DNA from: a virus
IMG/VR virus record: IMGVR_UViG_3300047496_000172
Location: 1 to 64,000 of that record
Direction: 5' to 3' (one strand)
DNA length: 64,000 bases
This document shows positions 3,846 through 61,514 of this stretch, piece by piece. Made by a program: the position numbers and the translations under genes. The notes beneath the pieces are model-generated. The model was not told where the DNA came from, did no database searches, and worked only from the letters and a program-made list of their open reading frames with translations. Each line of letters opens with the position of its first letter. Position 1 is the stretch's first letter.

Positions 3846-5627
3846 ATGGCCGGATTAAAGACTCGATATAAGGTTGCTTTAGGTGCTGTCGGCTTGGGAG
3901 TTTCCCTTTTTGCAGGCCATGCCGCACTAAAAGCAGGCTTTCTTCCCTCAGTAGCCAAAATGGTTGCTGTTGTACCCGACAAGGTGAATATCGCTACCCT
4001 TGGTGGCAATATTCAAAAGCAGCCATCTCAAAACTATGAGCTTCCTGCGGCGCCGGAAGCGGGGGCTCCAACTCGAACCCTTCTGGTTATTCCGTGGCAA
4101 GCGGACGGTTCGATTATTCTTGCGAACAATGGTGTCGGCAACGATTGCAGCGGTTCTCTGATGCAAAAGTTTGCAGGCGCCTGTCTAGTCATCGGTCGCC
4201 AAGATGACTACGGAAAGATGGCTGACGCTATCTTGAAGTTTGCTACCGATTTTTCCTCTGGAAATCCTAATCCTGGTGGTGCTGCCTACATCTCGATCAT
4301 GGGCGGCGGCGAAGCGGCTTGGCTTGCGGGGCTCAAGCCTCAAATGGACAAGCTCGGCCTGCACCTGAAGGTGTTCGGTGTTACTGGCTTCTCCTATGGG
4401 GAAGACAAGTGCATGGGGCCTGATTTGGGTGGCGATCCGAACAAGGCCAAGGGTGCTCTGATTGCGGCCAGCCCGCGAGACGGAGATTGGGACGTTTGCT
4501 TGAAGTGGGCGTCAGATAATAATATTCCGGTAAACTCTGACAGCACAATTTATGATCCCGGCGCGATTAATTTCGTGGATACAGACGGCTTCCAAACGGC
4601 GGATGACAAGTTCATTACCGGCGCCTGCGAAGATCGGGACGAAGCTAAGGGCGGCGTAAAGACCGGCAAGCGCGTGCATGTCTGCGTCAACGGTGTTGCA
4701 ACGTGGACACCCGGTGACGTGACGGTCATGCAAAAGAAGGGTGGTATTGTGACTTGGGCTTCAACGAAGCTCTATGATCAGCAAATGCCAGCCGTTCTCA
4801 TCGGTATCAAGGAAGAAATGGATAAGCATCCTGCCTTTGTGACGGGTATGCTCCGTGCGACTGACCGTGCGTCATTCCAAATTCGGACTACTCCGGATGG
4901 CGTTCACCGTATGGCCGTGGCGGAAGCCAAGGTCTTTGGGACTGCCGGTGGTGACGAAGCTGATCCCGCGTATTGGGAAAAGTATTTCGTCGGATATGAT
5001 TCGCCCGATGGCAAGGTTCGTCTCGGTGGTTCGCGTGTTTCGACCTTGGCCGAAGTTCGAGATTTCATGGGAATGACTCCTGGCACCTTCAATATCTACA
5101 AGGGCGTGTATGAAGTCTTTGGCGGCTACGATGTGAAGTATTATCCTACGACGGTTCCTTCGGTTCCGAAGTTCGAAGATATTATGGACACCAGCTATAT
5201 TTCGGCGGCTCTTGCTGGCGTGAATATGTCTGCGCCGACGACTACGGATTTTGCCACGGCAAAGACCATCACGTCTCCGGTCTCTACCAAGGCGGTTCAC
5301 ATCGAATTCGATACTGGTAAGGCGACTATTCGGCCTTCGTCGCGGCCCCAACTGCTTGATATTGCCAACATGGCGGCGCAAACCAATCTGATCATTCGAA
5401 TCAGCGGTTTCACTGACAATACGGGCGATCCCGATGCGAACGTAGCTCTGTCTCGGGCTCGCGCTAAGGCCGTTGCTGATGCTCTGACGAAGATGGGTGC
5501 GCTCACCTTCGGCGGGAACCGGATCGAACCGCCGCGTGGTTACGGTGCGGATCAACCGGTAGCCGATAACTCGACCCCGGAAGGCCGCGCTGCTAACCGG
5601 CGTGTGGAAATCGTCCTCGGTCAATAA
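3846..5627 (+). CDS. ABC substrate-binding protein fused to an OmpA-like peptidoglycan-binding domain
   Basis: N-terminal signal/TM, periplasmic-binding core, and OmpA motifs FDTGKA, GFTDNTG, LSRARAKAV, GYG, NRRVEI. Confidence 0.85.
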   Translation: MAGLKTRYKVALGAVGLGVSLFAGHAALKAGFLPSVAKMVAVVPDKVNIATLGGNIQKQPSQNYELPAAPEAGAPTRTLLVIPWQADGSIILANNGVGNDCSGSLMQKFAGACLVIGRQDDYGKMADAILKFATDFSSGNPNPGGAAYISIMGGGEAAWLAGLKPQMDKLGLHLKVFGVTGFSYGEDKCMGPDLGGDPNKAKGALIAASPRDGDWDVCLKWASDNNIPVNSDSTIYDPGAINFVDTDGFQTADDKFITGACEDRDEAKGGVKTGKRVHVCVNGVATWTPGDVTVMQKKGGIVTWASTKLYDQQMPAVLIGIKEEMDKHPAFVTGMLRATDRASFQIRTTPDGVHRMAVAEAKVFGTAGGDEADPAYWEKYFVGYDSPDGKVRLGGSRVSTLAEVRDFMGMTPGTFNIYKGVYEVFGGYDVKYYPTTVPSVPKFEDIMDTSYISAALAGVNMSAPTTTDFATAKTITSPVSTKAVHIEFDTGKATIRPSSRPQLLDIANMAAQTNLIIRISGFTDNTGDPDANVALSRARAKAVADALTKMGALTFGGNRIEPPRGYGADQPVADNSTPEGRAANRRVEIVLGQ

Positions 5628-5634
5628 TGGAATA

Positions 5635-5667
5635 GGGAGGCGTCGAAACGCCTCCCGACTTCTTTTG
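5635..5667 (+). terminator. Intra-operon hairpin or terminator after the SBP-OmpA gene
   Basis: GGGAGGCGT-CGAA-ACGCCTCCC followed by a T-rich tail. Confidence 0.7.
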
Positions 5668-5675
5668 TAAAAATA

Positions 5676-14179: not shown

Positions 14180-14974
14180 TCAATACAACCAACACTTATT
14201 TACGAATGGTTCTATTTTAGACCATTTACGTTGTAAGCCTCTTCCTTTATATATTTTTTTATATAAAGCAACTGCACTTTTACCACTAAAAACGATTTCA
14301 TATAAATTTGGTATATTTTTGTGATTTCTGATAGAACAAGGTAAATCTGTCCAAACGCCAATAAAGTCTATAATTTCTTTTGAGGCCAACAGATTAATTA
14401 ATACATTTTTTTGTTCTTTTGAAGAAAAATAAATACAACCATCACCGTCAATTAATCCTACTAACCATTGTGATATCAAAGTATCATCTCCTTTAATACA
14501 CTCTGGAACTCGATTAACTTTGGATTTCCTCGGAAAAATTTCCCATAGTTTCATATCTTCAATTATATAAGGATTGTTTATAACACAAGAATATTTAATC
14601 TTTCCATTTGATTTCTGTGAACGATAGTATAATGGTTTAGTTGAACCAACAAATTGTTTTAGCCCATTTACTAATTCATAATCTAAACAACTTAGTTCCA
14701 ATACATAACTTTCAGATTTCCCACTTTTCTTAATACAACCATCTGCGCTAATAACACCAGCCCAATAAGCCGTTTCTTCCGTTGGAGTTAAAAATATATT
14801 TTCATTACTACATGAATATTTTTGGTTACCTATTGGTAACGGAATCATATATGAAGATGCCCACCAAACAATTTTATCTCTACTACAATTCCATTGTTGA
14901 GCTAACAAAGTTGGACTGTTATTCTTAAGCCCGTCAATTAAATCATTTCTTGATGGCACATTTTTTTTAGTCAA
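14180..14974 (-). CDS. Free-standing LAGLIDADG homing endonuclease
   Basis: AYWAGVISADGC and WLVGLIDGDGC. Confidence 0.88.
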   Translation of the reverse strand: MTKKNVPSRNDLIDGLKNNSPTLLAQQWNCSRDKIVWWASSYMIPLPIGNQKYSCSNENIFLTPTEETAYWAGVISADGCIKKSGKSESYVLELSCLDYELVNGLKQFVGSTKPLYYRSQKSNGKIKYSCVINNPYIIEDMKLWEIFPRKSKVNRVPECIKGDDTLISQWLVGLIDGDGCIYFSSKEQKNVLINLLASKEIIDFIGVWTDLPCSIRNHKNIPNLYEIVFSGKSAVALYKKIYKGRGLQRKWSKIEPFVNKCWLY

Positions 14975-16129: not shown

Positions 16130-16879
16130 TCATATTGTAAAAATCTCGTATCCAGTTTCCGTAACACCAATTGAATGCTCCCACTGAGCACTTAATGTTT
16201 TGTCCTTAGTGACAGCCGTCCAACCATCACTAAGAATCTTCGTATCTGGCTTTCCAATATTGATCATCGGCTCAATAGTGAAGAACATTCCTGGAACAAA
16301 CGGTATTCCTTTGTAATCTGCATGTGGCATGAAGTGTAAAATTTGAGGATCATCATGGAAAACTCTTCCAACACCATGACCAACAAAAGTTTCAACCACC
16401 GAAAACCCATTTTTATGAGCATGATCTTCAATTGCTTTAGCAATATCACCCGTAAAACCACCCGGCTTTACCTGTTCAATTGCCAAATATAAACATTCTC
16501 GGGTAACATCGATCAATTTCTTAGCCTTGGCATTAATCGAACCAACTGCATACATTCGACTATGGTCGCCGTGCCAGCCATCAAGGATGACCGTATAATC
16601 AATATTGGCGATGTCGCCCTCGCGTAAAATCTTGGCACCAGGAATGCCATGACAGACCACATGATTGACGCTGATGCACAACGTCTTTGGATATCCTTTG
16701 TAGCCAAGACAAGCGGGAATACCATTATTTGCAAGCATGAACTCTCTTGCTAAGTTGTCAAGAGTTTCTGTTGCCACGCCTGGAACCACGAATTGTGTCA
16801 GATAGTCAGCGCATTGCGCTGCAAGCTTTCCAGCAGCACGCATGCCATTCCAATCTGCTTCATCTGTATGAATAATCAT
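16130..16879 (-). CDS. map: Methionine aminopeptidase type I
   Basis: CISVNHVVCHGIP, DHSR, GHGVG..FH, FTIEPM and SAQWEH. Confidence 0.96.
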   Translation of the reverse strand: MIIHTDEADWNGMRAAGKLAAQCADYLTQFVVPGVATETLDNLAREFMLANNGIPACLGYKGYPKTLCISVNHVVCHGIPGAKILREGDIANIDYTVILDGWHGDHSRMYAVGSINAKAKKLIDVTRECLYLAIEQVKPGGFTGDIAKAIEDHAHKNGFSVVETFVGHGVGRVFHDDPQILHFMPHADYKGIPFVPGMFFTIEPMINIGKPDTKILSDGWTAVTKDKTLSAQWEHSIGVTETGYEIFTI

Positions 16880-16889
16880 TGATTATTTA

Positions 16890-18251
16890 TCAATCAACCA
16901 AGCCGCCAGTCTTCTTTTCCAGATCAAAATTAGCTTCGATGAAGTCAATAACTTCTGCCGCTGGCGTGTTTCGATTGAAAACAATATTCGGGCCATGATT
17001 ATCGAGCATTACGGCATGAATATCATTAGAATATGGGCGAAGATTACGGCTGGTGTTGGCTCCGCAATTGTGCGATCCACATTCGTATTCCATCTGTGAA
17101 GCAATGTTCACAAAGTCTCGTGGATTTTCCTTAAGAGGAACGTGGGCATGCACGATGCAATCAAGTTCCGGATGCTCACGGAAAACAATTCGCTGCGATT
17201 GTCCACCAACAGATGGTTTCGCGCCGTGAGCGATGACCTTTGTATCATCTTCGTATTCAACCAACACCAATCCTTCGTCAGAAAGATTGTTGAAATTTCT
17301 CTTACGCTTCGACGTAAGGACGCGTCCTTCATCTAGCTTAACGGCGAAGTGACCAGCCGTTACACCACGGAAAGGTTTGTATGCGCCGCGATTGATACAA
17401 TGATTCACAACTTTACGAAGATTATCAGGAATCAAATCTGAATCCCAAGGAACCGATGTGCCTTCGTCAATAACAGTGGATCGAGTGAAGGTATTGGTAG
17501 AACGAGCCAAAACCATCTTGACTAGACCGTCAAGCATTTCATCACGATTGGTAGTCTCGAAATAGCGGGTTTCTTCGGGAGCTACAATCATGTTGTTACG
17601 AGTTACAGTATCATTGGCTACCACTAAATTAACACTATCGCGTTTTAGTGCATTCAGAGCTATTTTATACTGTTCGTCCGAAGTTGCACCAGTAGTGGTT
17701 TTGAAGGCAACCACGAAAATATCTTTGCGAACCTTTCGAATGCTGCCTACCAATTTATCGGCTGGAACAAGTTTCATTTCTTGATTGCCGTCAGAAGTCT
17801 TAAGGCGGATATCATGTGACCCAGACAAGGTAATCTTCTTTTTATTGGAAAAAGTAGAATTTTCTGGATCGTTCTCTAAAATAAAACCATTATAATCACA
17901 GAGAGCAGCATTCAAAATGATGACGCGGGTTTCCGGATCAGCAATGAGAGTATTGAGTAAAGCCGCAACATCATCATTTGTCACCAACTTACTTGTTGGA
18001 TCAGCCATCTTGGTCAAATGAAGATAATAATCATTGGCCCAAACCATTTCATCCCAACCACCTTGCGGATCAGTATTTGCTTTACCGGGATCATTGCTCG
18101 CAAACTTGTGCGCCAACTCACGAGCAGTTGTTCCAAACGCAGGAGCGGCCAACGCCAAATGATTGCGAACATGCGATAGTGTGCCTCCTCCAATAATGTG
18201 AATTTTACTCATTGAGTTTTCCTTTCGCAAATATCTATTACTCCGATCCAT
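16890..18251 (-). CDS. CoaB-like (phosphopantothenoylcysteine synthetase) domain fused to a class II aldolase-like domain
   Basis: N-half has GGGT..VR, AALCDY, VAFK and VVAND. C-half has HAH and NHG metal-binding pattern. Confidence 0.6.
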   Translation of the reverse strand: MDRSNRYLRKENSMSKIHIIGGGTLSHVRNHLALAAPAFGTTARELAHKFASNDPGKANTDPQGGWDEMVWANDYYLHLTKMADPTSKLVTNDDVAALLNTLIADPETRVIILNAALCDYNGFILENDPENSTFSNKKKITLSGSHDIRLKTSDGNQEMKLVPADKLVGSIRKVRKDIFVVAFKTTTGATSDEQYKIALNALKRDSVNLVVANDTVTRNNMIVAPEETRYFETTNRDEMLDGLVKMVLARSTNTFTRSTVIDEGTSVPWDSDLIPDNLRKVVNHCINRGAYKPFRGVTAGHFAVKLDEGRVLTSKRKRNFNNLSDEGLVLVEYEDDTKVIAHGAKPSVGGQSQRIVFREHPELDCIVHAHVPLKENPRDFVNIASQMEYECGSHNCGANTSRNLRPYSNDIHAVMLDNHGPNIVFNRNTPAAEVIDFIEANFDLEKKTGGLVD

Positions 18252-18870: not shown

Positions 18871-19177
18871 AAAATGATCTCCTTTATTCTAAATCATTAT
18901 AGACTATTTTTATTTATTGTCAAGGTCAGATTTAGACATTTTCAAAAACACACAAAAACGTTTCCATTCGCTCTGAATCAAAGGATTAGTCTTAATTTCC
19001 TCGTGATATTGCATAATTAGTTGTATTTCTGGAATGTCTTCCAACGCAAAATATTGATGAATAGCTTGTGTCATCAAATCCCCTTTACTAATTTTCTTTC
19101 GAAAAGATTTTATCCGAAGTTTATCATCATCGGTGTTATCCAAATAGAGCGTTCGTAAAACCCGGCCCATTCTGCAA

Positions 19178-19384
19178 TTATAGTTCTTTTTTAAGAAAAC
19201 TGCCCGTTTGAAGTTCAGTCCAACCAAGGTCTTCATCGATCTCGGCTCCATTTTTACGTGAAAATGTCCACCAACCACAGATAATATGGTCTTCGGTAAG
19301 TTCCGTAACTTGCAGCCGCATTGGAATGGAGCCTGCCAGAAGACGCGTCACAACATCTCCAACTTCAATATGCTCAAACATCAC
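19178..19384 (-). CDS. Hypothetical phage protein
   Basis: ATG ORF overlapping its neighbours. Confidence 0.55.
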   Translation of the reverse strand: MMFEHIEVGDVVTRLLAGSIPMRLQVTELTEDHIICGWWTFSRKNGAEIDEDLGWTELQTGSFLKKEL

Positions 19385-19691
19385 ATTTTTCTCACATCTA
19401 GATATAAAGGTTCTAATTGTTGGTTTTTATTCGGATTGTCAACTAATATTTTCCATTTTATCCCAAGATCGACAACAAGGCCGCCAACATTGCATCCCCA
19501 CGGATAAATCCACCATCCGAAAAATCCCCAACAATCAAAAATAAATGCCAGTTCACATAAAAAATATGAAAACCAATCTAAGGTATCATATACAAAAAAC
19601 TTAATTTTCATCATTTTAAACCGCGCACCACTCCGCTTTAAGCATGCAAAAGATATCCGAAAAATAATTTTCGTCAAGTTTCAAAAACATG

Positions 19692-19722
19692 TTGACATAA
19701 AAATCATCAGCGAGTATAAATA
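19692..19722 (+). promoter_or_regulatory. Dual sigma70/late promoter of the tRNA cluster
   Basis: TTGACA-17 bp-TATAAA, overlapping TATAAATA; ATG 19728 lies 7 nt after the -10 box. Confidence 0.8.
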
Positions 19723-19727
19723 AGATT

Positions 19728-19859
19728 ATGACTTACGCACTCAACATCTCCCGCACCGGTTCGGCCTTCGGCCAGGATCGTGGAGATATGGGCGGTCGCG
19801 GCGAACGAGAACTTCGCGCCGGGGCCATTTGTCGTGCGGATGGCGGAACCCAAGTCTAA
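19728..19859 (+). CDS. Putative leaderless leader peptide (43 aa, Gly/Arg/Asp/Glu-rich) upstream of the tRNA-Asp/Gly/Glu cluster
   Basis: MTYALNISRTGSAFGQDRGDMGGRGERELRAGAICRADGGTQV*. The stop lies inside the GGAACC/GGTTCC hairpin. Confidence 0.65.
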   Translation: MTYALNISRTGSAFGQDRGDMGGRGERELRAGAICRADGGTQV

Positions 19860-19943
19860 GGTTCCCCCTTCTCCCAAAGACAATTTGCTCCCGGCGACTG
19901 GTTAATTACCAGCACGGATGACTCTATCCAAAATCAAAATAAT

Positions 19944-20019
19944 GGTCGTGTTTCAATCTGGTTGATTGTATTCCGCTGTCTACGGAACAAGGCTGGTTCG
20001 ATTCCTGTCACGACCGCCA
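19944..20019 (+). tRNA. tRNA-Asp(GUC)
   Basis: GGTCGTG/CACGACC acceptor, TTCCG-CT GTC TA-CGGAA, GTTCGATTC, encoded CCA. Confidence 0.9.
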
Positions 20020-20027
20020 TTTTTGAT

Positions 20028-20103
20028 GCGGGTATGATGTTTAATGGTAGCATGTGCGATTGCCTGTCACACTGATTCGGTTCGAGTCCGAATATCCGCT
20101 CCA
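20028..20103 (+). tRNA. tRNA-Gly(GCC)
   Basis: GCGGGTA/TATCCGC acceptor, U73, loop TT GCC TG, GTTCGAGTC, CCA. Confidence 0.9.
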
Positions 20104-20136
20104 TTGATTTTGGATAGAGTCATCCGTGCTCCGTTT

Positions 20137-20211
20137 GGAGCCTTCGTATATCAGCGAATACATCTGACCTTCACTCAGAAAAGGCCGGGGCAGCACCGGT
20201 AGGCTCTTCCA
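20137..20211 (+). tRNA. Atypical tRNA-Glu(UUC)
   Basis: GGAGCCT/AGGCTCT acceptor, TCTGA-CC TTC AC-TCAGA, non-canonical T-loop GGCAGCA, CCA. Confidence 0.75.
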
Positions 20212-20213
20212 AT

Positions 20214-20288
20214 GCTCCCTTCGTCTAATGGTAGGACAACAGATTCTCAGTCTGAAAACATTTCGGTTCGATTCCGATAATACTCTTC
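20214..20288 (+). pseudogene. tRNA-Glu(CUC)-like gene with a non-pairing acceptor 3' strand
   Basis: D-arm, anticodon loop TT CTC AG and T-arm are present. The 3' strand AATACTC cannot pair with 5' GCTCCCT, and there is no CCA. Confidence 0.65.
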
Positions 20289-20546
20289 CTAACACCACCT
20301 CATCTTAAAGTGAATGGCATCTTCAACATGAGTGAAGCAATAAACCGTATATAATGAAATGATATACCAACTCCATCCTCTATCGATTGTTGGGACCGGG
20401 ACGTCAATCGGCCAAAAATCTTCTCCTATATTTTCTCTGCACCATAATTTTTCTTGATGTTGAAAAACTGTATTTTCGTTTTTTATTTTAACTATATTTG
20501 GAGCAATTTGGTGTAAAAAATCAATATTCATACTCATCCGTGCCAT
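20289..20546 (-). CDS. FKMRW-family small protein
   Basis: WCRENIG.DFWP ... FTHVEDAIHFKMRWC. Confidence 0.8.
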   Translation of the reverse strand: MARMSMNIDFLHQIAPNIVKIKNENTVFQHQEKLWCRENIGEDFWPIDVPVPTIDRGWSWYIISLYTVYCFTHVEDAIHFKMRWC

Positions 20547-20935
20547 CGCAGTTTAAATAAAATTGCCGATTTGATGTCTACAAAATAAAAAATTATTTTT
20601 TCATTGGCAAAAATAAAAGTCCATTTTCCTTCAAGTTTATCTGCATATATCGGCAACGATACCTTTTCATTTGGCCAGAAATCTCTTCCAATCTTATAGG
20701 TTTTACACCATTTTTTGAAAAAAGGTTCAACGCCACCCTTTCCATTAGGAATAGTTTTAATATTTTGATCATTTTCAGAGAACACGATTTCATGCAAATC
20801 ATATTTTTCCTTCAATATATCAATATGTTTAAATATTAAACCAGTTTTGTCGTTATCATAGTATCCAGTGGCTGATTTGTTCGCGCAGATTTTGTTGTAA
20901 TTTTTGAAACTCCTCGGCATCTCTAGCAGGATCAA
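20534..20935 (-). CDS. FKLRW-family small protein
   Basis: WC...IGRDFWP ... SAILFKLRWHG. Confidence 0.8.
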   Translation of the reverse strand: MILLEMPRSFKNYNKICANKSATGYYDNDKTGLIFKHIDILKEKYDLHEIVFSENDQNIKTIPNGKGGVEPFFKKWCKTYKIGRDFWPNEKVSLPIYADKLEGKWTFIFANEKIIFYFVDIKSAILFKLRWHG

Positions 20936-21365: not shown

Positions 21366-21653
21366 ATGTTTAGCGTGAATCCACAGATAATAGCAGATTT
21401 ACAGAAAGTTGCGGCCTATGGGGTTGTGATAAAAAAATCTGAAAATTCTGTATTCATATATGACAAATGTCGATTATGGTGTGAAGAAAATATAGGAGAA
21501 AAAGATTTCTGGCCATCGAGTAGCGAAGATATGACTGTTCCAGAAACAATATCTGGTAGAGCGTGGACTTGGTATTATAACCAAGAAGGTGCTATTACTT
21601 TTTATTTTACCAACGTGGAAGATGCTATCCACTTCAAAATGAGATGGCTATAA
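21366..21653 (+). CDS. FKMRW-family small protein
   Basis: WCEENIG..DFWP ... FYFTNVEDAIHFKMRWL. Confidence 0.8.
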   Translation: MFSVNPQIIADLQKVAAYGVVIKKSENSVFIYDKCRLWCEENIGEKDFWPSSSEDMTVPETISGRAWTWYYNQEGAITFYFTNVEDAIHFKMRWL

Positions 21654-21935
21654 ATGAGTGAAGAACTTACACATAATAATTTGCAAAAAATTGCTCCTTT
21701 TGTAATTAACGCCCATATATTCTTCAGCGTAAACAATCCACATTTTTATCGTGATTGTCAAACATGGTGCGAAGAAACCATAGGAAAAGACTTTTGGCCA
21801 GCAGGTAGCTCAAAAATACCAAAAAATTTATCTGGTAGAGCTTGGACTTGGTATAACCATCCCAATTCCAATTCTATTGATTTCTATTTTACCAACGTTG
21901 AAGACGCTATCCACTTCAAAATGAGATGGTGTTAA
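21654..21935 (+). CDS. FKMRW-family small protein, tandem paralog
   Basis: FYFTNVEDAIHFKMRWC; 3' DNA nearly identical to the upstream copy. Confidence 0.8.
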   Translation: MSEELTHNNLQKIAPFVINAHIFFSVNNPHFYRDCQTWCEETIGKDFWPAGSSKIPKNLSGRAWTWYNHPNSNSIDFYFTNVEDAIHFKMRWC

Positions 21936-24108: not shown

Positions 24109-25678
24109 AACTCTTTCTAATCACGTGCTTTATATCTGCAACGAGATATTCTTTATCGCGAGTTGATAACTTTTCGTATATATTTAGTTCATCTTCTAAT
24201 TTATAGTCTAAATATCCATTGAATGATAATCCGCTGTTAACTGCTAACCATCCAACAAATCTCTTCCAAACATCGTCACCATAAAATTTAGGACGATACC
24301 AAGTTTCGCTACCATCTTGGCGAACCCAAAGCTGCTCTGCGTTTGATAACGATTCTAGAAAATAAGTCAAAGTATCTCTGGAACAACCACGATTATAAAA
24401 ATCATATACTTCATTATTGTTACCATAAGAAATCACTTGATCATTTATTTCTAATCTAACTGAAACGTTAAAGTAAGTCTTATAAATATTATAGTATACT
24501 ATAGACGTTACTTTTATACCATCCACATTTTTTTCATATAAACCTCTAATTCTCATAGAGGCATACTTTTTATCGTCTCTATATAACTCATTAGAGACAT
24601 CAGTATTCCATTTTACTGTTGCGTTAGGTTCAAAAAATCTATCTTCTCCTAATTTAATTGCTTGATCTTGGGATATTATAGGCTCAAACAACAAATCAGA
24701 TTTTAGAGCAACAACGTTTTCTATACGATTTTCGATATATTCTATTAAATGTTCAATAGACATCTCACGCATCATTTTAGATGGAATACCAAAACTATCA
24801 GTTGACCTACCATAAATAAAATCGACATGTAATCCGGAATCCCATTTGTCATTGTACTCCATTCGAAATTTTTTATCATCGATTTCGAATAACAAAATAG
24901 GGCGTTTCTTATCCCATTTGATATAACCTTTATATTGTTCAGCAAGTAGTTTCATGATGTTGAGTACAGCGACTTTCCACTCTTCCCAATTTGACTGATC
25001 CGCAAACGACGATACCTCCTTTCGCTTTGTATGGACATTACTATCAACAATCTTGATAATTTTAGTATTCAATACCAATATTTGATGAGGTTCATAGTTA
25101 TAGATAACGGAATTATTATCATCGTAAATATATGCTATGTTTTTCAGAGATTGAGCCCATGACATGATTTTATTCTTTTGCATAAGATAACAAAAAGTCC
25201 AAAGAGCACTTGCTGGACTATCTGGCTTAAAATGTGCAGGAAATGTTAGTTCAGCCTTATAGTGATTACCCTTCAAATTTTCAGTTGGAAGAAACAATTC
25301 TCCATTATCATAACGATCAACTTGAGCCCAAATATCAGCCCAACCATTCATTTTAGATACGCGATTAAAATCATCCCAATTAAATGATGATAGAACTATA
25401 CCTGGACTACTGAAATCTATACTAACAATAAAATAGTAAGGAAATTTTACTCCAAACTGATTACCACTTTTTACGCGGTCGCTATCATTATGGAGAAGCC
25501 AATTTGTTGGATAAAAATATATCCCATGGGGATCATTGTGGTGCTTCTTGGGATTTATTCCAAGCTTAGGAATATGAGAAAAATGAATGAACTTACCGGG
25601 ATATTTTTTAAGAACTGGAATGATAGGACTTTTGTCATACCAATTCAATTCGGTCAAAATTTCCATAAATTCGCGCAT
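24095..25678 (-). CDS. Late protein of unknown function sharing a domain with 33622..34818
   Basis: F.HFS..KLGINP....PHGIYFYP matches FVSFT...KIGINP....PYGIFAYP; TAAATA upstream. Confidence 0.6.
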   Translation of the reverse strand: MREFMEILTELNWYDKSPIIPVLKKYPGKFIHFSHIPKLGINPKKHHNDPHGIYFYPTNWLLHNDSDRVKSGNQFGVKFPYYFIVSIDFSSPGIVLSSFNWDDFNRVSKMNGWADIWAQVDRYDNGELFLPTENLKGNHYKAELTFPAHFKPDSPASALWTFCYLMQKNKIMSWAQSLKNIAYIYDDNNSVIYNYEPHQILVLNTKIIKIVDSNVHTKRKEVSSFADQSNWEEWKVAVLNIMKLLAEQYKGYIKWDKKRPILLFEIDDKKFRMEYNDKWDSGLHVDFIYGRSTDSFGIPSKMMREMSIEHLIEYIENRIENVVALKSDLLFEPIISQDQAIKLGEDRFFEPNATVKWNTDVSNELYRDDKKYASMRIRGLYEKNVDGIKVTSIVYYNIYKTYFNVSVRLEINDQVISYGNNNEVYDFYNRGCSRDTLTYFLESLSNAEQLWVRQDGSETWYRPKFYGDDVWKRFVGWLAVNSGLSFNGYLDYKLEDELNIYEKLSTRDKEYLVADIKHVIRKSYENY

Positions 25679-26054
25679 TCGGGTATTTATCGATAAACTG
25701 TTAACCCAACAACTTTTTCAAAAATACATTTGTGTCTATGATAGAATCTTATCACACCCTCTGCCGAGTTTTCATAATAAAGTGGAATTCCAAATATAGT
25801 TCCAAAATATGTACCAATAAATACATTCATATTAGAAAAATTCATCTCGTGCGTATAGTAATATGGCGTATCATTAATATTAGATTGTTTTCTAAGTATA
25901 TTATAAACAAAAAAGGATATAGTTATATATTCAAAAAAATTATTCTCTGATATTTTGTTTTTAATAATATTTAATATCTCTTCTTCTTTCATGAAGATTT
26001 CTTTCGAAGTCAGTAGGATGGATTGAGATTGATGAACTCTCCTAACTACTTTTT

Positions 26055-27357: not shown

Positions 27358-28701
27358 TTAAAGGCGCAACCTCCAATAACCAGGGCCATAAACACCATCA
27401 AGTGCGAGCATCCATTCACTGCCCGTCCACTTAAGTTGCCGCCCACTTTGTAAGTTTACGACATATTGCGGCGGGCTACCAAAAGCCGAGAAACTAACAA
27501 CCCATCTTGATAGCGATACATTATACTGAATTATGTCTCCATATCTAGCTGATAATGTTCCCCAGGCAACACTATTTCCTATATCATGCACAAGTAAATA
27601 TCTTTGACCATCTACCGCCGCTGGTAAACTACCATCTCCTGGATAATTTAAAACTGGATTGATAATCGCGTTCACTGCTGGTAAAGTATTAGCTGGAAGC
27701 GTTGAAGGATCAATTTGCCATAATAAATTTAAAGCATTTGAAGGATCAATTTGAAACGTTCCCGTTACGCCTGGACCATTTATATCTGTCGTAGTCAGCA
27801 AAGTTAATTCACTTGACGATGGGCGCAATTCACCATATTGTTTTAAGAACGTACTCCATACATAGGCATTACCGGTAGGATCAGTTTGTCCTTCTTTTTG
27901 AATATATGTTATAACTCCGTTTGAAACTGATATGTGTTGTTCTTCTGGAGTAACAATAATTTGAACATAAGTATTCCCGGCATGAGAATCATAAATTAAT
28001 CCTGGAACGCGTGCAGTATCGTTTATGTTCGTAATGATTTGGTTAATTATTTTTTGTTGTTTTATTTTTGCTGGTGGAGAAAGCCAAATTGGAATACGTA
28101 AAGTTATCGTCATAACATCAATTTCATCAGACGTTCCTATTGGAATAGAACGAGAAGAATAATTTATATCTTCAACATAGGCTGTAGTTAAAGCCGACCA
28201 GTCAAGTGCATTTTGGCTATTTTGTATGTCAAAAGAAGGATATATTGCTGTAAGAATTTGTTCACTCAACTGATATTTTTGACTTAAATTTGAAGTCCAA
28301 ATATCAATTTGAATTTTCATTTCAAATGGTAAAGGCATAATCCGATCAACCGTATATCTACGACCATCGTTCTCAGTATAGATATTATTGACAATTTCTC
28401 GTTCCACCACTTGACGAGAATCTACATAGCTTCTGTTCTGCAATCTATCTGGAGTACCAGTTAAAGCAGTTTGCCAAACGGTAATCATTGGAACCGTCAA
28501 TAATGTATTTTCCGATTGATTTCGCATGATATTAGCTACAACTCTATTAGTAGTAGCCATTCGACATGGAACGAGCATTTCTACCGGAGGATTCCCTCCA
28601 CTACTACCGGTTTTATATTGAAAACCAGAAAATCCGCGTATTATCTGCTCAAGAAATCGTTCTTGCTGGCGATCATAAAAATAATCTATATGTTGTATCA
28701 T
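27358..28701 (-). CDS. Tail terminator/sheath stabilizer (T4 gp15-like) with a C-terminal extension
   Basis: YFYD.Q..RF..Q..R.FS, MP.PF.M....DIWT, EQI...F and IW.SPP pattern. Confidence 0.75.
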   Translation of the reverse strand: MIQHIDYFYDRQQERFLEQIIRGFSGFQYKTGSSGGNPPVEMLVPCRMATTNRVVANIMRNQSENTLLTVPMITVWQTALTGTPDRLQNRSYVDSRQVVEREIVNNIYTENDGRRYTVDRIMPLPFEMKIQIDIWTSNLSQKYQLSEQILTAIYPSFDIQNSQNALDWSALTTAYVEDINYSSRSIPIGTSDEIDVMTITLRIPIWLSPPAKIKQQKIINQIITNINDTARVPGLIYDSHAGNTYVQIIVTPEEQHISVSNGVITYIQKEGQTDPTGNAYVWSTFLKQYGELRPSSSELTLLTTTDINGPGVTGTFQIDPSNALNLLWQIDPSTLPANTLPAVNAIINPVLNYPGDGSLPAAVDGQRYLLVHDIGNSVAWGTLSARYGDIIQYNVSLSRWVVSFSAFGSPPQYVVNLQSGRQLKWTGSEWMLALDGVYGPGYWRLRL

Positions 28702-28759
28702 AGTGCTATTTATGTAAAAAAATATTGAAAGAAACGATCATCATCCGTCATAATAAATT

Positions 28760-33585: not shown

Positions 33586-33621
33586 ATAATACCTCATTCC
33601 GCATGTATATATAAATATAAT

Positions 33622-34818
33622 ATGGATATTTTTGAGTTATTTGATTCGCCAGTTCAGACTAATCTGAAGCCAATAAAACGTAAAGCTTATAAAAAATTTC
33701 TTGCTGGAGAACGCGAAGACAATTTCCCTAAGAAATTCGTTAGAAGATTCAAAGTAGATAATAAATCATATGTTATATATGTTAACAACATTGACTTAAA
33801 TAGTTATGATATACAATATGCTTTAGTTACAAACAGAAAAGAATTTGATTTAAATTATTCTCCAACTAATGATAATAATAAAAAACATACTTTAGAAGTT
33901 TTTCATCATGTGGCCGCATACTTAAAGTTTTTCTTCTCTAAATTGAAACCCAATAAAAAATATACCATCACTTTTGGTGGAACGGTTTCGGATCAGCAAG
34001 ATTTATACAGAATCGCTGTTAGATATCTCAAAAGAATAGTTCCACCAGGATATGAAATAACATCTGATGATCGTAAGGTAACTATTACAAATAAAAACAC
34101 AATGGTTGAAACTACTTTGACTGAATTACGAAGAAATCCTGAATTAAATAAAAAACTCACGGTATTTGAACAACTCAGTAAATATGCTGGACAAAAAGAT
34201 GTGTTCGTATCTTTTACTGAAAATGTAGGAAGAATGAGTCATCCAACTGATTGGTCCCTGGATATGAAACAAAAGTCTTCAAATACTCATGGTCATAAAA
34301 TTGGTATAAATCCAAGATCAAATTGGAAATATGCTCCTTATGGGATTTTTGCTTATCCTATAGATTATGTCTTATCACAAAAGGGGGACATGCCGTTCGC
34401 GGCAGGAAGACCTTATCTTTATGTGTTTAAAGCTATAGGCAATTTTATTGATATAGATGCCTATAGTTATGATGATTTAGAACGAGATTCAGAAAAATTG
34501 CCTATGTTTGGTATTAATAGAAATGAATTTTTGAAGAACGCTATCGGGTTACCGGCAAAATATTTGTTTTTTAATTGTTTACGCAAACTTGTTACTAAAG
34601 AAAGTAAAAGTCGTTATTCTTCTACTACTATAGACACAATAGCATGGTCTAAATTAATCAGACAATTAGGTTATGATGGTATATTAGATTATGGTGGATA
34701 TAATATAACTCCAGATATAAAGGCACAAGCAGTATTTTTTACAATAAAAAGTATTAAGCCATTAGAGGTGATAGATAACAAAACTCACTGGCTTGGCCGC
34801 AATGGTGTAGATAAATAA
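33622..34818 (+). CDS. Two-domain late protein (putative internal virion protein)
   Basis: TATAAATA leaderless start, MDIFELFD, internal MVETTLTEL linker. Confidence 0.6.
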   Translation: MDIFELFDSPVQTNLKPIKRKAYKKFLAGEREDNFPKKFVRRFKVDNKSYVIYVNNIDLNSYDIQYALVTNRKEFDLNYSPTNDNNKKHTLEVFHHVAAYLKFFFSKLKPNKKYTITFGGTVSDQQDLYRIAVRYLKRIVPPGYEITSDDRKVTITNKNTMVETTLTELRRNPELNKKLTVFEQLSKYAGQKDVFVSFTENVGRMSHPTDWSLDMKQKSSNTHGHKIGINPRSNWKYAPYGIFAYPIDYVLSQKGDMPFAAGRPYLYVFKAIGNFIDIDAYSYDDLERDSEKLPMFGINRNEFLKNAIGLPAKYLFFNCLRKLVTKESKSRYSSTTIDTIAWSKLIRQLGYDGILDYGGYNITPDIKAQAVFFTIKSIKPLEVIDNKTHWLGRNGVDK

Positions 34819-40980: not shown

Positions 40981-42176
40981 TATCGATTAAGCTCTGCTTT
41001 AACAATGGCTAAATATTTTTTTGGATTATCAAAGGAATTATTTCCAAATTTGTTCTGAATATACATACCTTTTTCAAAAAGCTTTCCGTATTTTCCTACC
41101 CAAGATAAAAGGGTTTTTTTGGCGTCATCAGACGGATAAAGCCAGTTTAATGACATATAATTAGCCCAAGTTGATACCTGAATCCATCCATTATCAACGG
41201 CGGCTTCTAGTGCCATATTTTTTACTTCCCATCCATCATCCTCATGTTCTTCGCCATCGTCTAAATCAAAATGTTTCAATGCTATATCGGCATGATGTAA
41301 ATTTTGTTCATGATCGCACTCTAATATTTCTCCATTTTCTGTAATCCAAAATCCTCCTTTGGTATCGTTCAATCCTTCTGTGAGACCTTCAGACATCAAT
41401 TGACCGGTATCCATAATATTTGGATATTTTTCTTTCAACCATTCCCAAAGTTTGTAGAGACGTTTGTCGAAACGTTTTTTGGTTTCGGCTGTCATATGGT
41501 TCCGAAAATCTTCTCTGAAATCTATTAGAAAGTTTTTCTTGAAATCCTCGAACGTTCTTAACTTTCGTTTAGCCCCAATGCTTTTATCTATTATCAATTC
41601 TTTCATTACCGAATGCATTCCTTGTTGAAAAAATGCATTGAATTCTTTTGGACTGTTAAAATATTCTGTATTATTTTTTAGTTTTGGGCTTGAAAAGCCA
41701 TACGGAGCATTGCGATCAGATGTTTTTTGTCGTTTAGCATCAAAATAATGAATAAGCTCATGAACAATAGACGATCTATGACTGTCCGAAGTTTTCCATA
41801 TTAATTCTGTCTCATCGGCGATATCTTCCAATTTTATAGATGGTTTTGGCACAAATACTACTGTATATTCTATTCCATCGGTGTAGATCGCGGTAGTTAT
41901 ATATGCTTTGATGTTTCGAGAAGAATCATAAGACGGTCCTAAACCGATAAACAAATCCTTGTATTCTTGTGGTAACCCCAACTCTAATGCGCTAACAGCA
42001 TACACTTTGAAGTCATGATTTTTAGCATGTAGTGTTTTTCTACCCATTATCATTTTTATGGGTTTCTCTTCATTATTATCATGCATCCATTTGAAAAATT
42101 TGTAACATATCATCTCTGCTTTACGCAAAGATAAAATATCACTTTCGGCACTTTCAAAAATGTCATAGAGATTCAT
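40980..42176 (-). CDS. Two-domain late protein with an HExxH zincin motif
   Basis: IVHELIHYFD ... YFNSP.E..A; linker LMSEGLTEG; TAAATA upstream. Confidence 0.65.
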   Translation of the reverse strand: MNLYDIFESAESDILSLRKAEMICYKFFKWMHDNNEEKPIKMIMGRKTLHAKNHDFKVYAVSALELGLPQEYKDLFIGLGPSYDSSRNIKAYITTAIYTDGIEYTVVFVPKPSIKLEDIADETELIWKTSDSHRSSIVHELIHYFDAKRQKTSDRNAPYGFSSPKLKNNTEYFNSPKEFNAFFQQGMHSVMKELIIDKSIGAKRKLRTFEDFKKNFLIDFREDFRNHMTAETKKRFDKRLYKLWEWLKEKYPNIMDTGQLMSEGLTEGLNDTKGGFWITENGEILECDHEQNLHHADIALKHFDLDDGEEHEDDGWEVKNMALEAAVDNGWIQVSTWANYMSLNWLYPSDDAKKTLLSWVGKYGKLFEKGMYIQNKFGNNSFDNPKKYLAIVKAELNR

Positions 42177-42243
42177 CGGTTATTTATTCGATTGACAACA
42201 AATGAAAAACTGATATGATGAAATCTTCCGGTAGAAAGGCTTT

Positions 42244-47899: not shown

Positions 47900-47973
47900 T
47901 GGTGCCGATAGTAAGAATCGAACTTACATCTCCATATTACGAGTATGGCCGTCTACCACTGACATATACCGGC
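47900..47973 (-). tRNA. tRNA-Thr(CGU)
   Basis: GCCGGTA/TATCGGC acceptor, CCATA-CT CGT AA-TATGG, GTTCGATTC, CCA. Confidence 0.93.
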
Positions 47974-47997: not shown

Positions 47998-48042
47998 TCA
48001 GGCGATGCTGGTCGTTCGCGTCAATGTTAGGACGTTGATCAT
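47998..48042 (-). CDS. Putative leaderless Thr-rich leader peptide upstream of tRNA-Thr
   Basis: MINVLTLTRTTSIA* with codons ACA, ACG, ACG, ACC; TAAATA 6 nt before the ATG; the stop overlaps the TCGCCT/AGGCGA hairpin. Confidence 0.65.
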   Translation of the reverse strand: MINVLTLTRTTSIA

Positions 48043-48051
48043 AAAAACTAT

Positions 48052-48294
48052 TTAGCTGACTTTTTTCTTATTGCCAAACCATTTTAGACGAATATACCAA
48101 AAATAATAAAATAGAGTGGCGATAGGTCGAGTGAAAGGTCTTCCATAGAAAGTCCATTCTGGTGTTTTCATGTAGGCATCCATTCGAAGTTTTCCTTCTT
48201 CAATAGGAATGATTTTACCCAGACCTTCTCCTTGTAGAATAGTTATCTTCTTACCATTTTCGTAACGAATTATTTCCTTAACCATAGTTGACAT
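48052..48294 (-). CDS. Hypothetical protein
   Basis: ATG ORF upstream of the Thr leader. Confidence 0.5.
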   Translation of the reverse strand: MSTMVKEIIRYENGKKITILQGEGLGKIIPIEEGKLRMDAYMKTPEWTFYGRPFTRPIATLFYYFWYIRLKWFGNKKKVS

Positions 48295-59936: not shown

Positions 59937-60710
59937 ATGAATATGGGTTTTTTCAGTGCGCTTCTGGGTGCAGAAGCGAAGCATGCTGTGCGAGCCGTAA
60001 GTGATCAGATCGTAGCGATGGACCCTTCGACAGCTTCGGCGGCCCAATTGCAAACGATGGAACAAGACCTTGATCGGGTCGGCAGGGAACTGGCCAAGTT
60101 CCAAGCGGAAGCTCTCCGCGAAAATGGCGAAGTCATTAAGATTCAAACTCAATATGATCGTCTTGTAGCCGCCGCCGCAAAGATGACTGCGGATTATGAC
60201 GCGGAAACAGATGAAACTCGCAAGACAGGTTTGGGCATGAGCCTTTCGGGCCTCATGGAAACCTGCGAAAAGCTAAAGTCCGATCTTGCTACGGAAGCCC
60301 AACACAAGGCGGATGCTGACGCTCTGGTTGCTGAAACTGAATCGATCTACAAGGCCAAGGGCGCCGATGTTCTCACCGCCAGAAAGAACCTTGAAAGTGC
60401 GGCACGCGATATGGCCCGCGCTCAAGTTGAGAAGGAACATACCGGTATGATGGCGGAAAATGCCGCGCGTGTTGCCGGTCTTCGAAATAACGAAATCGAC
60501 GGTCTGCATGGTGCGCTCGATGCCATGGCCCGCAAGACGGCGGACGCTAAGGCGGTGGCGGAAGCCAATCGTCTCAAGGTCCAAGTATTGTCACATGTTG
60601 ACGCTGGTAGCGTTGACGACCCCAACGTGAAAGCGGCCTTGGCTGCTGTCTCGGGTGCTCCCAGCACGCAATCCTTTGCGGATCGTCTGGCTGCGCTGAA
60701 GTCCAAGTAA
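59937..60710 (+). CDS. PspA/IM30 (YjfJ-like) coiled-coil protein
   Basis: MGFFSAL...DP, a long coiled coil and C-terminal DRLAALK. Confidence 0.75.
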   Translation: MNMGFFSALLGAEAKHAVRAVSDQIVAMDPSTASAAQLQTMEQDLDRVGRELAKFQAEALRENGEVIKIQTQYDRLVAAAAKMTADYDAETDETRKTGLGMSLSGLMETCEKLKSDLATEAQHKADADALVAETESIYKAKGADVLTARKNLESAARDMARAQVEKEHTGMMAENAARVAGLRNNEIDGLHGALDAMARKTADAKAVAEANRLKVQVLSHVDAGSVDDPNVKAALAAVSGAPSTQSFADRLAALKSK

Positions 60711-60746
60711 ACCATCATCACTTAACAGAAAAGGAATTACATTAAA

Positions 60747-61514
60747 ATGATTAAGCGTAGTTTTATCGGTATTCTAGCAGTGGTGGGCATGCTTGCCTCC
60801 GCTTGTAGCCCGCAACCTCAACAGGTTTATCAGCAACCCGTCGCCGTTTCACAAGTCCAGCAAGTTCAGGCTCCACAGCCAAAGCTCTACAATTCGGTTC
60901 AAGACTGTCAGTCTGACCAGACGAACGTCAACCCTCAACTGTGCGCTACGGCTTTTGCTCAATCTCAAGCCCAACTGACACATTATAATTCATATGCTTC
61001 TTGTTCGGCATATGGCTACAACGACTGCGTTGATCATGGTGGCTGGTTTGGTCCTATGATGACGGGCTTCATGCTCGGCGCCATGACCAACGGTTATTAC
61101 GGTTCGCCGGTCTATGTTCTCCATGGTGGCTACTATGGCGGCGGTTATTACGGACATGCTCTGAATTATGGAGCCCCAATTCGTGTCGGCGGCCATTATG
61201 TTCTCTCCCATGATGTTGTGGTTCATCAACACGTCTATGTGTCTCAACATGCGGCGCCAGCGGCTGTCGTAACTCGCGCCGGGTTCGGCGGTTCTCAGGT
61301 TGCCTCGGTTTCTGCGCCCCGTCCCTCTGTCGCGGCTCCTTCGGCGGCGGCGACTGTTCAACGCGGCGGGTTCGGCGGCGGCTTTGGTGGGGCGACGACG
61401 GTTAACAGCGGCTATCATGCTTCTCCTGCCTATGCGTCTTCTTATCGATCTTCGTCTTCGGGTTCATCCTATCACTCCTCGTTTTCTTCTAGCGGAAGCA
61501 GCCGTCGTCGTTAA
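60747..61514 (+). CDS. DUF1190 (YgiB/YjfM-like) lipoprotein
   Basis: Lipobox LASAC, Y.S..DC...C, Y.S...C...C, P.M.GF.LG and RGGFG. Confidence 0.8.
   Translation: MIKRSFIGILAVVGMLASACSPQPQQVYQQPVAVSQVQQVQAPQPKLYNSVQDCQSDQTNVNPQLCATAFAQSQAQLTHYNSYASCSAYGYNDCVDHGGWFGPMMTGFMLGAMTNGYYGSPVYVLHGGYYGGGYYGHALNYGAPIRVGGHYVLSHDVVVHQHVYVSQHAAPAAVVTRAGFGGSQVASVSAPRPSVAAPSAAATVQRGGFGGGFGGATTVNSGYHASPAYASSYRSSSSGSSYHSSFSSSGSSRRR

Follow-up and report, generated by a model that had tools for sequence, protein, structure and literature searches.

It is an open question why phages carry transfer RNA (tRNA) genes and at what point they use them, and host defences that cut tRNAs, from which phage tRNAs escape, have recently sharpened it (PMC10264068, PMC11555353). 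In a small tRNA locus of one phage contig, a short open reading frame (ORF) stands between the promoter and the tRNA genes. The stretch analysed here, called the window, covers 64,000 nucleotides (nt) and forms the first 64 kilobases (kb) of a viral contig that is 106.6 kb long and comes from a moss metagenome (IMG/VR record IMGVR_UViG_3300047496_000172). What does the segment 19692-19910 of this window do? Our answer is a tentative one. We favour the view that a small tRNA operon with Asp, Gly and two decayed Glu-type elements starts here, that the segment comprises its promoter and its 5' leader, and that this leader may be translated and may serve to sense ribosomes.

The leader begins in the same way as protein genes of this phage. 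The hexamers TTGACA and TATAAA (19715-19720) are separated by a spacer of 17 nt, and after a further 5-7 nt follows ATG 19728, at whose A transcription is predicted to start. The -10 hexamer overlaps a box of the T4 late-promoter type, a motif (TATAAATA) mentioned in PMC1524935 and PMC3014915. The layout at 19728 can thus be written as ATAAATA-N4-6-ATG, that is, as a T4-type late-promoter box fused to a start codon. The same layout is found at 17 sites in the contig (17 of its 58 boxes), and all of them open ORFs of at least 43 codons. Sixteen are genes for 123-597 amino acids (aa), including one T4 gp15-like tail gene, and the 43-codon ORF at 19728, referred to as ORF43, is the seventeenth. 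By chance, an ATG at offsets of 4-6 nt would be expected for about 3 of the 58 boxes (~5%). A Shine-Dalgarno site is absent before ATG 19728. The pattern points to T4-type late promoters fused to start codons and hence to leaderless late messenger RNAs (mRNAs). Examples of such gene starts are located at 16879-16896, 25678-25696, 28701-28719, 33611-33624 and 42176-42193, and contig genes that lack the ATAAATA-ATG start show clear AGGAG ribosome-binding sites. An earlier, sequence-only reading of the locus had described the TTGACA-17-TATAAA(TA) promoter and had predicted a leaderless start. The promoter and ATG 19728 are present exactly as it described them. The leaderless start, still a prediction, is much better founded than that reading knew, given that 16 real genes share the layout from promoter to ATG.

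The closest complete relative of the phage is LR756511, a 595-kb uncultured phage with 51% amino-acid identity in one neighbouring gene. The box likewise precedes genes there, with 15 long versus 3 short ORFs. One ATAAATA box of this genome (LR756511.1 267288-267310, minus strand) lies 7 nt before the 5' end of a tRNA-Gln gene and has no ATG, and its transcript would be nearly leaderless. Since this box precedes a tRNA gene without any ATG, the ATG is not required by the promoter.

ORF43 is located 84 nt 5' of tRNA-Asp on the same strand, with the promoter immediately upstream. Its codons include 9 for Gly (4 GGC, 2 GGT, 2 GGA and 1 GGG), 3 GAT for Asp, 2 GAA for Glu and 6 for Arg, and both its length and the counts of Gly, GGY, GAT, GAA and Arg codons agree with the earlier description. 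Codons cognate to the downstream tRNAs (Gly/Asp/Glu) account for 11 of 42 (P = 0.001-0.004 in the fixed frame; P = 0.03 when the best of six frames is taken). Asp and Gly codons alone account for 9 of 42 (P = 0.011). Within positions 15-28, cognate codons make up 8 of 14. The guanine plus cytosine (GC) content is 61% in ORF43 and 68% at 19750-19849, compared with 38% in the whole window, and it jumps sharply about 15 nt past the ATG. Shuffled sequences of matched composition kept a frame of at least 43 codons open from the fixed ATG in 40% of cases, and the real sequence has several open frames distributed over both strands. The peptide is of low complexity (Gly/Arg/Ala), and the codon usage of ORF43 is unlike that of the phage, with a value of 0.57 on a scale like the codon adaptation index (CAI).

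A second mini-ORF is found at the other tRNA locus of the contig. Short frames of 8-70 codons with a TAAATA-N4-6-ATG start number four in the contig, and two of them directly precede its only two tRNA loci. The frame before tRNA-Thr(CGU) contains Thr at 4 of its 14 codons (ACA, ACG, ACG and ACC), and its stop codon lies in the loop of a hairpin at 48005-47981. When the 120 nt before the tRNA were shuffled, 0.15% of the shuffles gave an equally Thr-rich ORF; shuffling only the composition of the frame itself gave one in 6%. The TAAATA box of this mini-ORF overlaps the stop codon of the upstream gene, and an octamer, GCGAACGA, is common to the Thr leader and the Asp/Gly leader (19801-19808). Pairing of the leader with the body of tRNA-Thr is present in the minimum-energy fold, but with a z-score of -0.2 it was not retained.

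The leader of the Asp/Gly locus is predicted to form a series of hairpins (Table 1). As the sequence-only reading had noted, the stop codon TAA (19857-19859) falls within a GGAACC/GGTTCC hairpin (19845-19850 / 19860-19865), in its 9-nt loop. This hairpin proves to be the apex of a much longer one of 79 nt, here called the big hairpin. The C/U tract reported after the stop codon is also present; rather than a free tail, it forms the 3' strand of the big hairpin. Hairpin A is predicted to form in transcripts that end before 19865, as a competitor of the big hairpin's outer helix. Folding z-scores are -2.3 (leader) and -5.4 (19720-20300). Folding with a stalled ribosome was modelled at equilibrium with a ribosome footprint of 30 nt. 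The big hairpin folds when there is no ribosome or when the ribosome stalls at codons 1-26, and it is disrupted only while codons 27-44 are occupied. The structure therefore distinguishes a frame that is being read through from one that is unread or stalled early.

Table 1. Positions in the window of the leader elements, the tRNA-type elements and the second mini-ORF.
Feature	Positions	Strand	Remarks
-35 hexamer TTGACA	19692..19697	+	36 nt 5' of ATG
TATAAATA, sigma-70-type -10 hexamer TATAAA overlapping T4-type late-promoter box	19715..19722	+	5 nt before ATG
ORF43, predicted leaderless ORF of 43 codons	19728..19859	+	61% GC; 6 GGY, 3 GAU, 2 GAA
Hairpin 1, cUUCGg-type apex	19745..19790	+	-18.5 kcal/mol
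Alternative hairpin A	19794..19826	+	-19.3 kcal/mol in isolation; takes 5' strand of outer helix of big hairpin
Big rod-like hairpin, 79 nt	19818..19896	+	-37.7 kcal/mol; 5' strand is codons 31-41 of ORF43, 3' strand is C/U-rich tract
Small hairpin CUGGU-UAAUU-ACCAG	19898..19912	+	
Inverted repeat of 27 base pairs (bp), left arm	19911..19937	+	perfect
tRNA-Asp(GUC)	19944..20019	+	ARAGORN and Rfam; CCA encoded; U at position 37
tRNA-Gly(GCC)	20028..20103	+	ARAGORN and Rfam (18 bits only); CCA encoded; U37; C-A mismatch in anticodon stem
27-bp inverted repeat, right arm	20104..20130	+	begins at base after CCA of tRNA-Gly
Atypical tRNA-like cloverleaf, anticodon UUC (Glu)	20137..20213	+	ARAGORN mitochondrial mode and hand folding only
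Damaged tRNA-Glu(CUC)-like element	20214..20290	+	Rfam tRNA 28.8 bits (cut-off 29), model positions 7-64 only
14-codon ORF 48042-47998 with box TAAATA 48054-48049, N6, ATG 48042	47998..48054	-	24 nt before tRNA-Thr(CGU)
tRNA-Thr(CGU)	47900..47973	-	

Three tRNAs and a damaged Glu(CUC) had been claimed downstream of ORF43. Only Asp(GUC) and Gly(GCC) pass the standard tools; the Glu(UUC)-like element is atypical and the Glu(CUC)-like element is damaged. The former has the anticodon loop CCUUCAC with C33, a D loop without GG, the T loop GGCAGCA and the end UCCA, and it is most similar to phage tRNA-Glu UUC. The acceptor stem of the latter is broken and non-complementary. The oddities in the anticodon loops (U37 in Asp and Gly, C33 in the Glu(UUC)-like element) would fit published phage tRNAs that evade nucleases (PMC10264068). 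The genes for tRNA-Asp and tRNA-Gly are enclosed by a perfect and sharply bounded 27-bp inverted repeat, which is the sole perfect inverted repeat of at least 17 nt with arms 40-1200 nt apart in the contig. LR756511 has no tRNA-flanking repeat of this kind. The repeat may act as an RNase III-type stem, may bound an invertible segment or may result from a recent DNA event.

Searches with Rfam returned only tRNA matches (E up to 10 for 19300-20700; gathering score for the whole window), and the known RNA families considered (T-box, amino-acid leaders, riboswitches, tmRNA, RNase P, Y RNA and GOLLD/ROOL) were rejected because of this result. No tRNA hidden within the leader was detected by ARAGORN with relaxed settings. 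A retron was rejected because a reverse transcriptase is absent nearby.

A leader that senses ribosomes might work as follows. The early-type TTGACA-17-TATAAA promoter, with the overlapping late box, would start the RNA at AUG 19728. ORF43 would probably be translated without a ribosome-binding leader, as in at least 16 protein genes of this phage. Ribosomes on the last third of ORF43 would melt the 79-nt hairpin, and ribosomes delayed at the cluster of GGY, GAU and GAA codons (codons 11-26) would leave it folded. The speed at which cognate codons are decoded may in this manner be tied to the output of the downstream tRNAs. The Thr-rich 14-codon frame, and the 21-codon frames of Caulobacter and Brevundimonas phages described below, may represent the same design.

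The controlled step is not classical intrinsic termination, and two other candidates are considered. One involves Rho. Reading through ORF43 would open the C-rich, G-poor 3' strand of the big hairpin (19863-19892) to Rho and turn tRNA output off; conversely, a stall on the GGY/GAU/GAA cluster would keep the C-rich strand paired and leave output on. This model is coherent, if unproven, and a role for Rho is suggested by a 29-nt tract that is high in C and low in G. The other candidate is folding and processing of the precursor, in which the 27-bp duplex around Asp and Gly may act as an RNase III-type processing stem. A link to host anticodon nucleases is purely conjectural.

Analogous leaders were found in cultured giant phages. 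Ten cultured relatives among distantly related giant phages retain such an ORF before tRNA-Glu/Asp. In Dolichocephalovirinae, which include Caulobacter and Brevundimonas phages, a 21-codon ORF that is predicted to be leaderless precedes tRNA-Glu(UUC)/tRNA-Asp(GUC). Leaders before tRNA-Glu/Asp were aligned for seven phages (CcrBL9, CcrSC, RB23, CcrPW, CcrColossus, Kikimora and Bajun), of which five are distinct, CcrSC being identical to CcrBL9. Every aligned leader starts with ATGAC at the predicted +1, its ORF is exactly 66 nt long, and indels are located after the stop codon. The TTGAC -35 box is present in six of the seven, with none within 48 nt upstream in CcrBL9. The distance from TTGAC to ATG is 36 nt in RB23, Kikimora and Bajun, identical to that in the window. 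A GC hairpin in these leaders shows compensatory changes, one in-frame GAU is invariant, and the stop codon is in the apex of a long hairpin that adjoins the tRNA. Two other arrays in CcrBL9 have leader ORFs in which cognate codons make up 22 of 38 (P = 0.012) and 17 of 31 (P = 0.006), and one of these ORFs is followed by a classic terminator. Leader ORFs precede three tRNA arrays in CcrBL9, at about 80287-80380, 81307-81427 and 88798-88897 of its record. Gly, Asp and Glu tRNAs are grouped also in Bajun and in Erythrobacter phage XM05.

The two loci of the window and the cultured phages together invite a wider claim. According to it, the tRNA loci of this megaphage would each be run by a leaderless mini-gene written partly in cognate codons (Gly/Asp/Glu at 19728, Thr at 48042), with ribosome speed setting the output without an intrinsic terminator, for example through masking or exposure of a C-rich Rho entry site or through altered processing of the precursor. 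With the Caulobacter and Brevundimonas leaders, these mini-genes would make up a widespread and unpublished sensor of decoding capacity. We regard this generalization as doubtful.

The gene neighbourhood is rich in functions related to translation. Genes for a GatB/Yqey-domain protein, an M24 methionine aminopeptidase and a PTH2 peptidyl-tRNA hydrolase surround the tRNA locus, and an Acb1-like protein, a macro domain and a T4 gp15-like tail protein are encoded nearby as well. The segment 10203-18870 of the window forms a cluster of translation genes (GatB/Yqey-domain, M24 methionine aminopeptidase), in which PTH2 carries an N-terminal extension. It also contains a CoaB-like/class II aldolase fusion and a free-standing LAGLIDADG endonuclease ORF (14180-14974). 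The tRNA locus itself is flanked by four paralogous small proteins: 20289-20546 and 20534-20935 on the minus strand, and 21366-21653 and 21654-21935 on the plus strand. They share invariant W-C...I-G..DFWP...AI.FK.RW motifs and match no Pfam or PHROG family; one distant relative was found in another tRNA-rich viral contig. Elsewhere in the contig, GC-rich islands (4034-5668, 59976-61483, 70146-70316 and 88709-88854; 58-73% GC compared with 38% for the genome) are mostly intragenic, which suggests repeated uptake of GC-rich DNA. The completeness of the contig is estimated at 18%, and the phage genome would therefore be about 0.6 megabases. The Caulobacter giant phages are more distant relatives of this phage than LR756511.

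Relatives of the locus were sought at several levels. DNA of 19300-20700 had no match in phage records, and in LR756511 it matched only tRNA T-loops. In viral contigs, scans for exact patterns found neither the stop-codon hairpin nor the T arm plus acceptor of tRNA-Asp nor the repeat arm, and the repeat-arm pattern was likewise not found in metagenome contigs. The pattern of the tRNA-Thr anticodon arm occurred in one unrelated phage contig, without the leader. Loci reached through neighbour proteins (CoaB-like, PTH2 and the FWP paralogues) belonged only to distant phages with 27-43% identity and lacked the element. The best PTH2 homologue is only 53% identical, which indicates that no close relative is on record. 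A protein search with ORF43 returned only the self-match, with nothing among 1.8 billion representative proteins. The antisense frame of 58 aa (19707-19883) had no protein match, neither frame belongs to a Pfam or PHROG family, and a coding remnant on the minus strand was rejected because homology was lacking. Among sequencing runs, the stretch was present only in the probable source samples (moss metagenome), and no RNA run is listed among those that contain it. Contigs from sequencing runs left 19000-20186 uncovered and showed no joints.

Several results weigh against a translated, ribosome-sensing leader. The excess of cognate codons that the sequence-only reading had proposed is moderately unusual against shuffles in the fixed frame, but it appears to be mostly an effect of GC content and is carried by Gly. 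Gly (21%), Arg (14%) and Ala (12%) are enriched in ORF43 as the GC content predicts, and Arg and Ala are enriched as much as Gly, yet no Arg or Ala tRNA is located downstream. Asp and Glu, which account for 7.0% and 4.7% of ORF43, lie at the phage averages of 6.0% and 5.7%. The in-phase antisense frame is as open as ORF43 and as coding-like. Attenuation of the hisL/thrL type, which had been invoked for the locus, is not supported: a search of 19300-20700 for a terminator-like site (hairpin plus U tract) found none between ORF43 and the tRNAs, although ordinary intrinsic terminators occur elsewhere in the contig. The big hairpin is followed by GACUGGUUAAUU and has no U tail, and the tRNA-Thr leader likewise lacks an intrinsic terminator. 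A classical intrinsic-terminator switch was rejected on these grounds. According to equilibrium folding, a stall at 8 of the 11 cognate codons keeps the big hairpin intact. No homologue of the leader DNA or of the peptide was found in phage records, LR756511, viral and metagenome contigs or 1.8-5.8 billion proteins, and the 32 tRNA arrays of LR756511 show nothing comparable. The analogues add to these objections. A covariance model of the Caulobacter/Brevundimonas leaders had no match at 19690-19910 (E up to 10), and a hidden Markov model (HMM) of their peptides failed to rank ORF43 among 1207 ORFs; homology of the window leader to them is thus unsupported by either model. Substitutions within the analogue family number 123, 104 and 92 by codon position, showing no third-position bias, and other frames are open too. 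Translation is therefore unproven in that family as well.

Close behind the ribosome-sensing leader, and nearly as likely, is a leader that is structured and non-coding. In that case, the GC-rich 180 nt would amount to a folded 5' portion of the precursor, or else to a co-transcribed stable small RNA of the kind of T4 RNAs C and D, and would contribute to stability or processing. Nucleases (RNase III/E/P) would use the long hairpin and the 27-bp duplex as landmarks, and the AUG and its frame would be incidental. Such an RNA would agree with 68% GC in a genome of 38%, with three to four stable hairpins, and with the folding z-scores given above. It would also agree with the absence of a terminator, with a low-complexity peptide that has no homologue, and with a 43-codon frame that stays open in 40% of shuffles beside several other open frames on both strands. 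The LR756511 box that drives a tRNA gene without any ATG is a further point in its support. What it does not account for is that an ATG at the gene-start offset, expected in about 5% of cases by chance, is found at both tRNA loci, and that cognate codons are enriched in the frame of ORF43. A conserved RNA is also not backed by an Rfam family match or by covariation.

We consider it unlikely that the start codon is a relic, namely that the promoter and ATG of an older leaderless gene were captured by incoming GC-rich DNA bearing tRNAs, and that any translation is a by-product without function. In its favour are the abrupt rise in GC about 15 nt after the ATG and other GC-rich islands within genes of the contig that look acquired. 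The tRNA block is decaying, with two damaged Glu elements; the perfect, sharply bounded 27-bp repeat suggests a recent event at the DNA level; and paralogous small genes are located on either side of the locus. However, a relic would leave both the mini-ORF before tRNA-Thr and the excess of cognate codons unexplained, and no source of the GC-rich segment was found at the DNA or protein level. Far less probable still is an independent small protein, a Gly/Arg-rich peptide of 43 aa that has its own job and is merely co-transcribed. ORF43 does share its start context with real genes and is called as a gene in the source record, but its composition is of low complexity, its codons are chosen differently from those of the phage (CAI-like value 0.57), its frame is buried in strong RNA structure, and no homologue was found among the 1.8 billion representative proteins. 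The translated, ribosome-sensing leader is preferred, on a tentative basis.

If the ribosome-sensing leader is real, phages would regulate their tRNA supply on demand. Ribosome-mediated attenuation, so far known from amino-acid and antibiotic-resistance operons, would then also apply to tRNA genes and leaderless mRNAs. Otherwise, the locus would still provide a clear illustration of promoter-fused start codons and of an unusual 27-bp duplex around two tRNAs. Our literature search found no paper on leader ORFs of phage tRNA genes, nor on the 21-codon ORF of Dolichocephalovirinae.

The ilvGMEDA, thr, his and trp operons are controlled by transcription attenuators with leader peptides, which can be multivalent. 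Like these, the transcript of the tRNA locus would have at its head a short ORF that may be enriched in codons tied to the downstream genes, and this ORF overlaps helices, so that ribosome position could set the fold. The differences are that tRNAs and not biosynthetic enzymes would be regulated, that the ORF is predicted to be leaderless, and that a hairpin-plus-U terminator is absent. In addition, the cognate codons of ORF43 are spread over 29 positions, and its Asp and Glu codons are not above the phage background. The leader ORFs of Salmonella mgtL/mgtA and corA are Rho-dependent attenuators. As proposed for the window, translation of their leader ORFs decides whether a C-rich stretch is folded or exposed, and an intrinsic terminator is unnecessary; at the window, however, involvement of Rho is only inferred. 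In T4, the tRNA cluster is co-transcribed with the stable RNAs C and D. Both phages have the TATAAATA box and a tRNA operon whose precursor contains additional structured RNA, whereas T4 late mRNAs have Shine-Dalgarno leaders. We know of no leader ORF for the T4 tRNA genes.

In Anabaena, a cryptic long tRNA operon is induced under translational stress (PMC8421152) and has the repressor TrcR (PMC10272220). It resembles the proposed system in that impaired translation turns on additional tRNA genes, but it is bacterial and depends on a protein repressor instead of a leader ORF. The remaining comparison is with the Dolichocephalovirinae leader. The two differ in length, the ORF there being 66 nt versus 132 nt here, and have no detectable similarity of sequence or profile. 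The long hairpin of Dolichocephalovirinae is 5-8 nt from the tRNA, has a weak U-rich tail and competes with hairpin 1, whereas in the window 47 nt, with a small hairpin and the 27-bp duplex, lie between the big hairpin and the tRNA. Both leaders nevertheless stand ahead of Asp/Glu tRNAs and have a sigma-70-type -35 box 36 nt before ATGAC. In both, a GC hairpin occupies the middle of the ORF, a GAU codon is in frame shortly before its end, and the leader is closed by a long hairpin with the stop codon at its apex.

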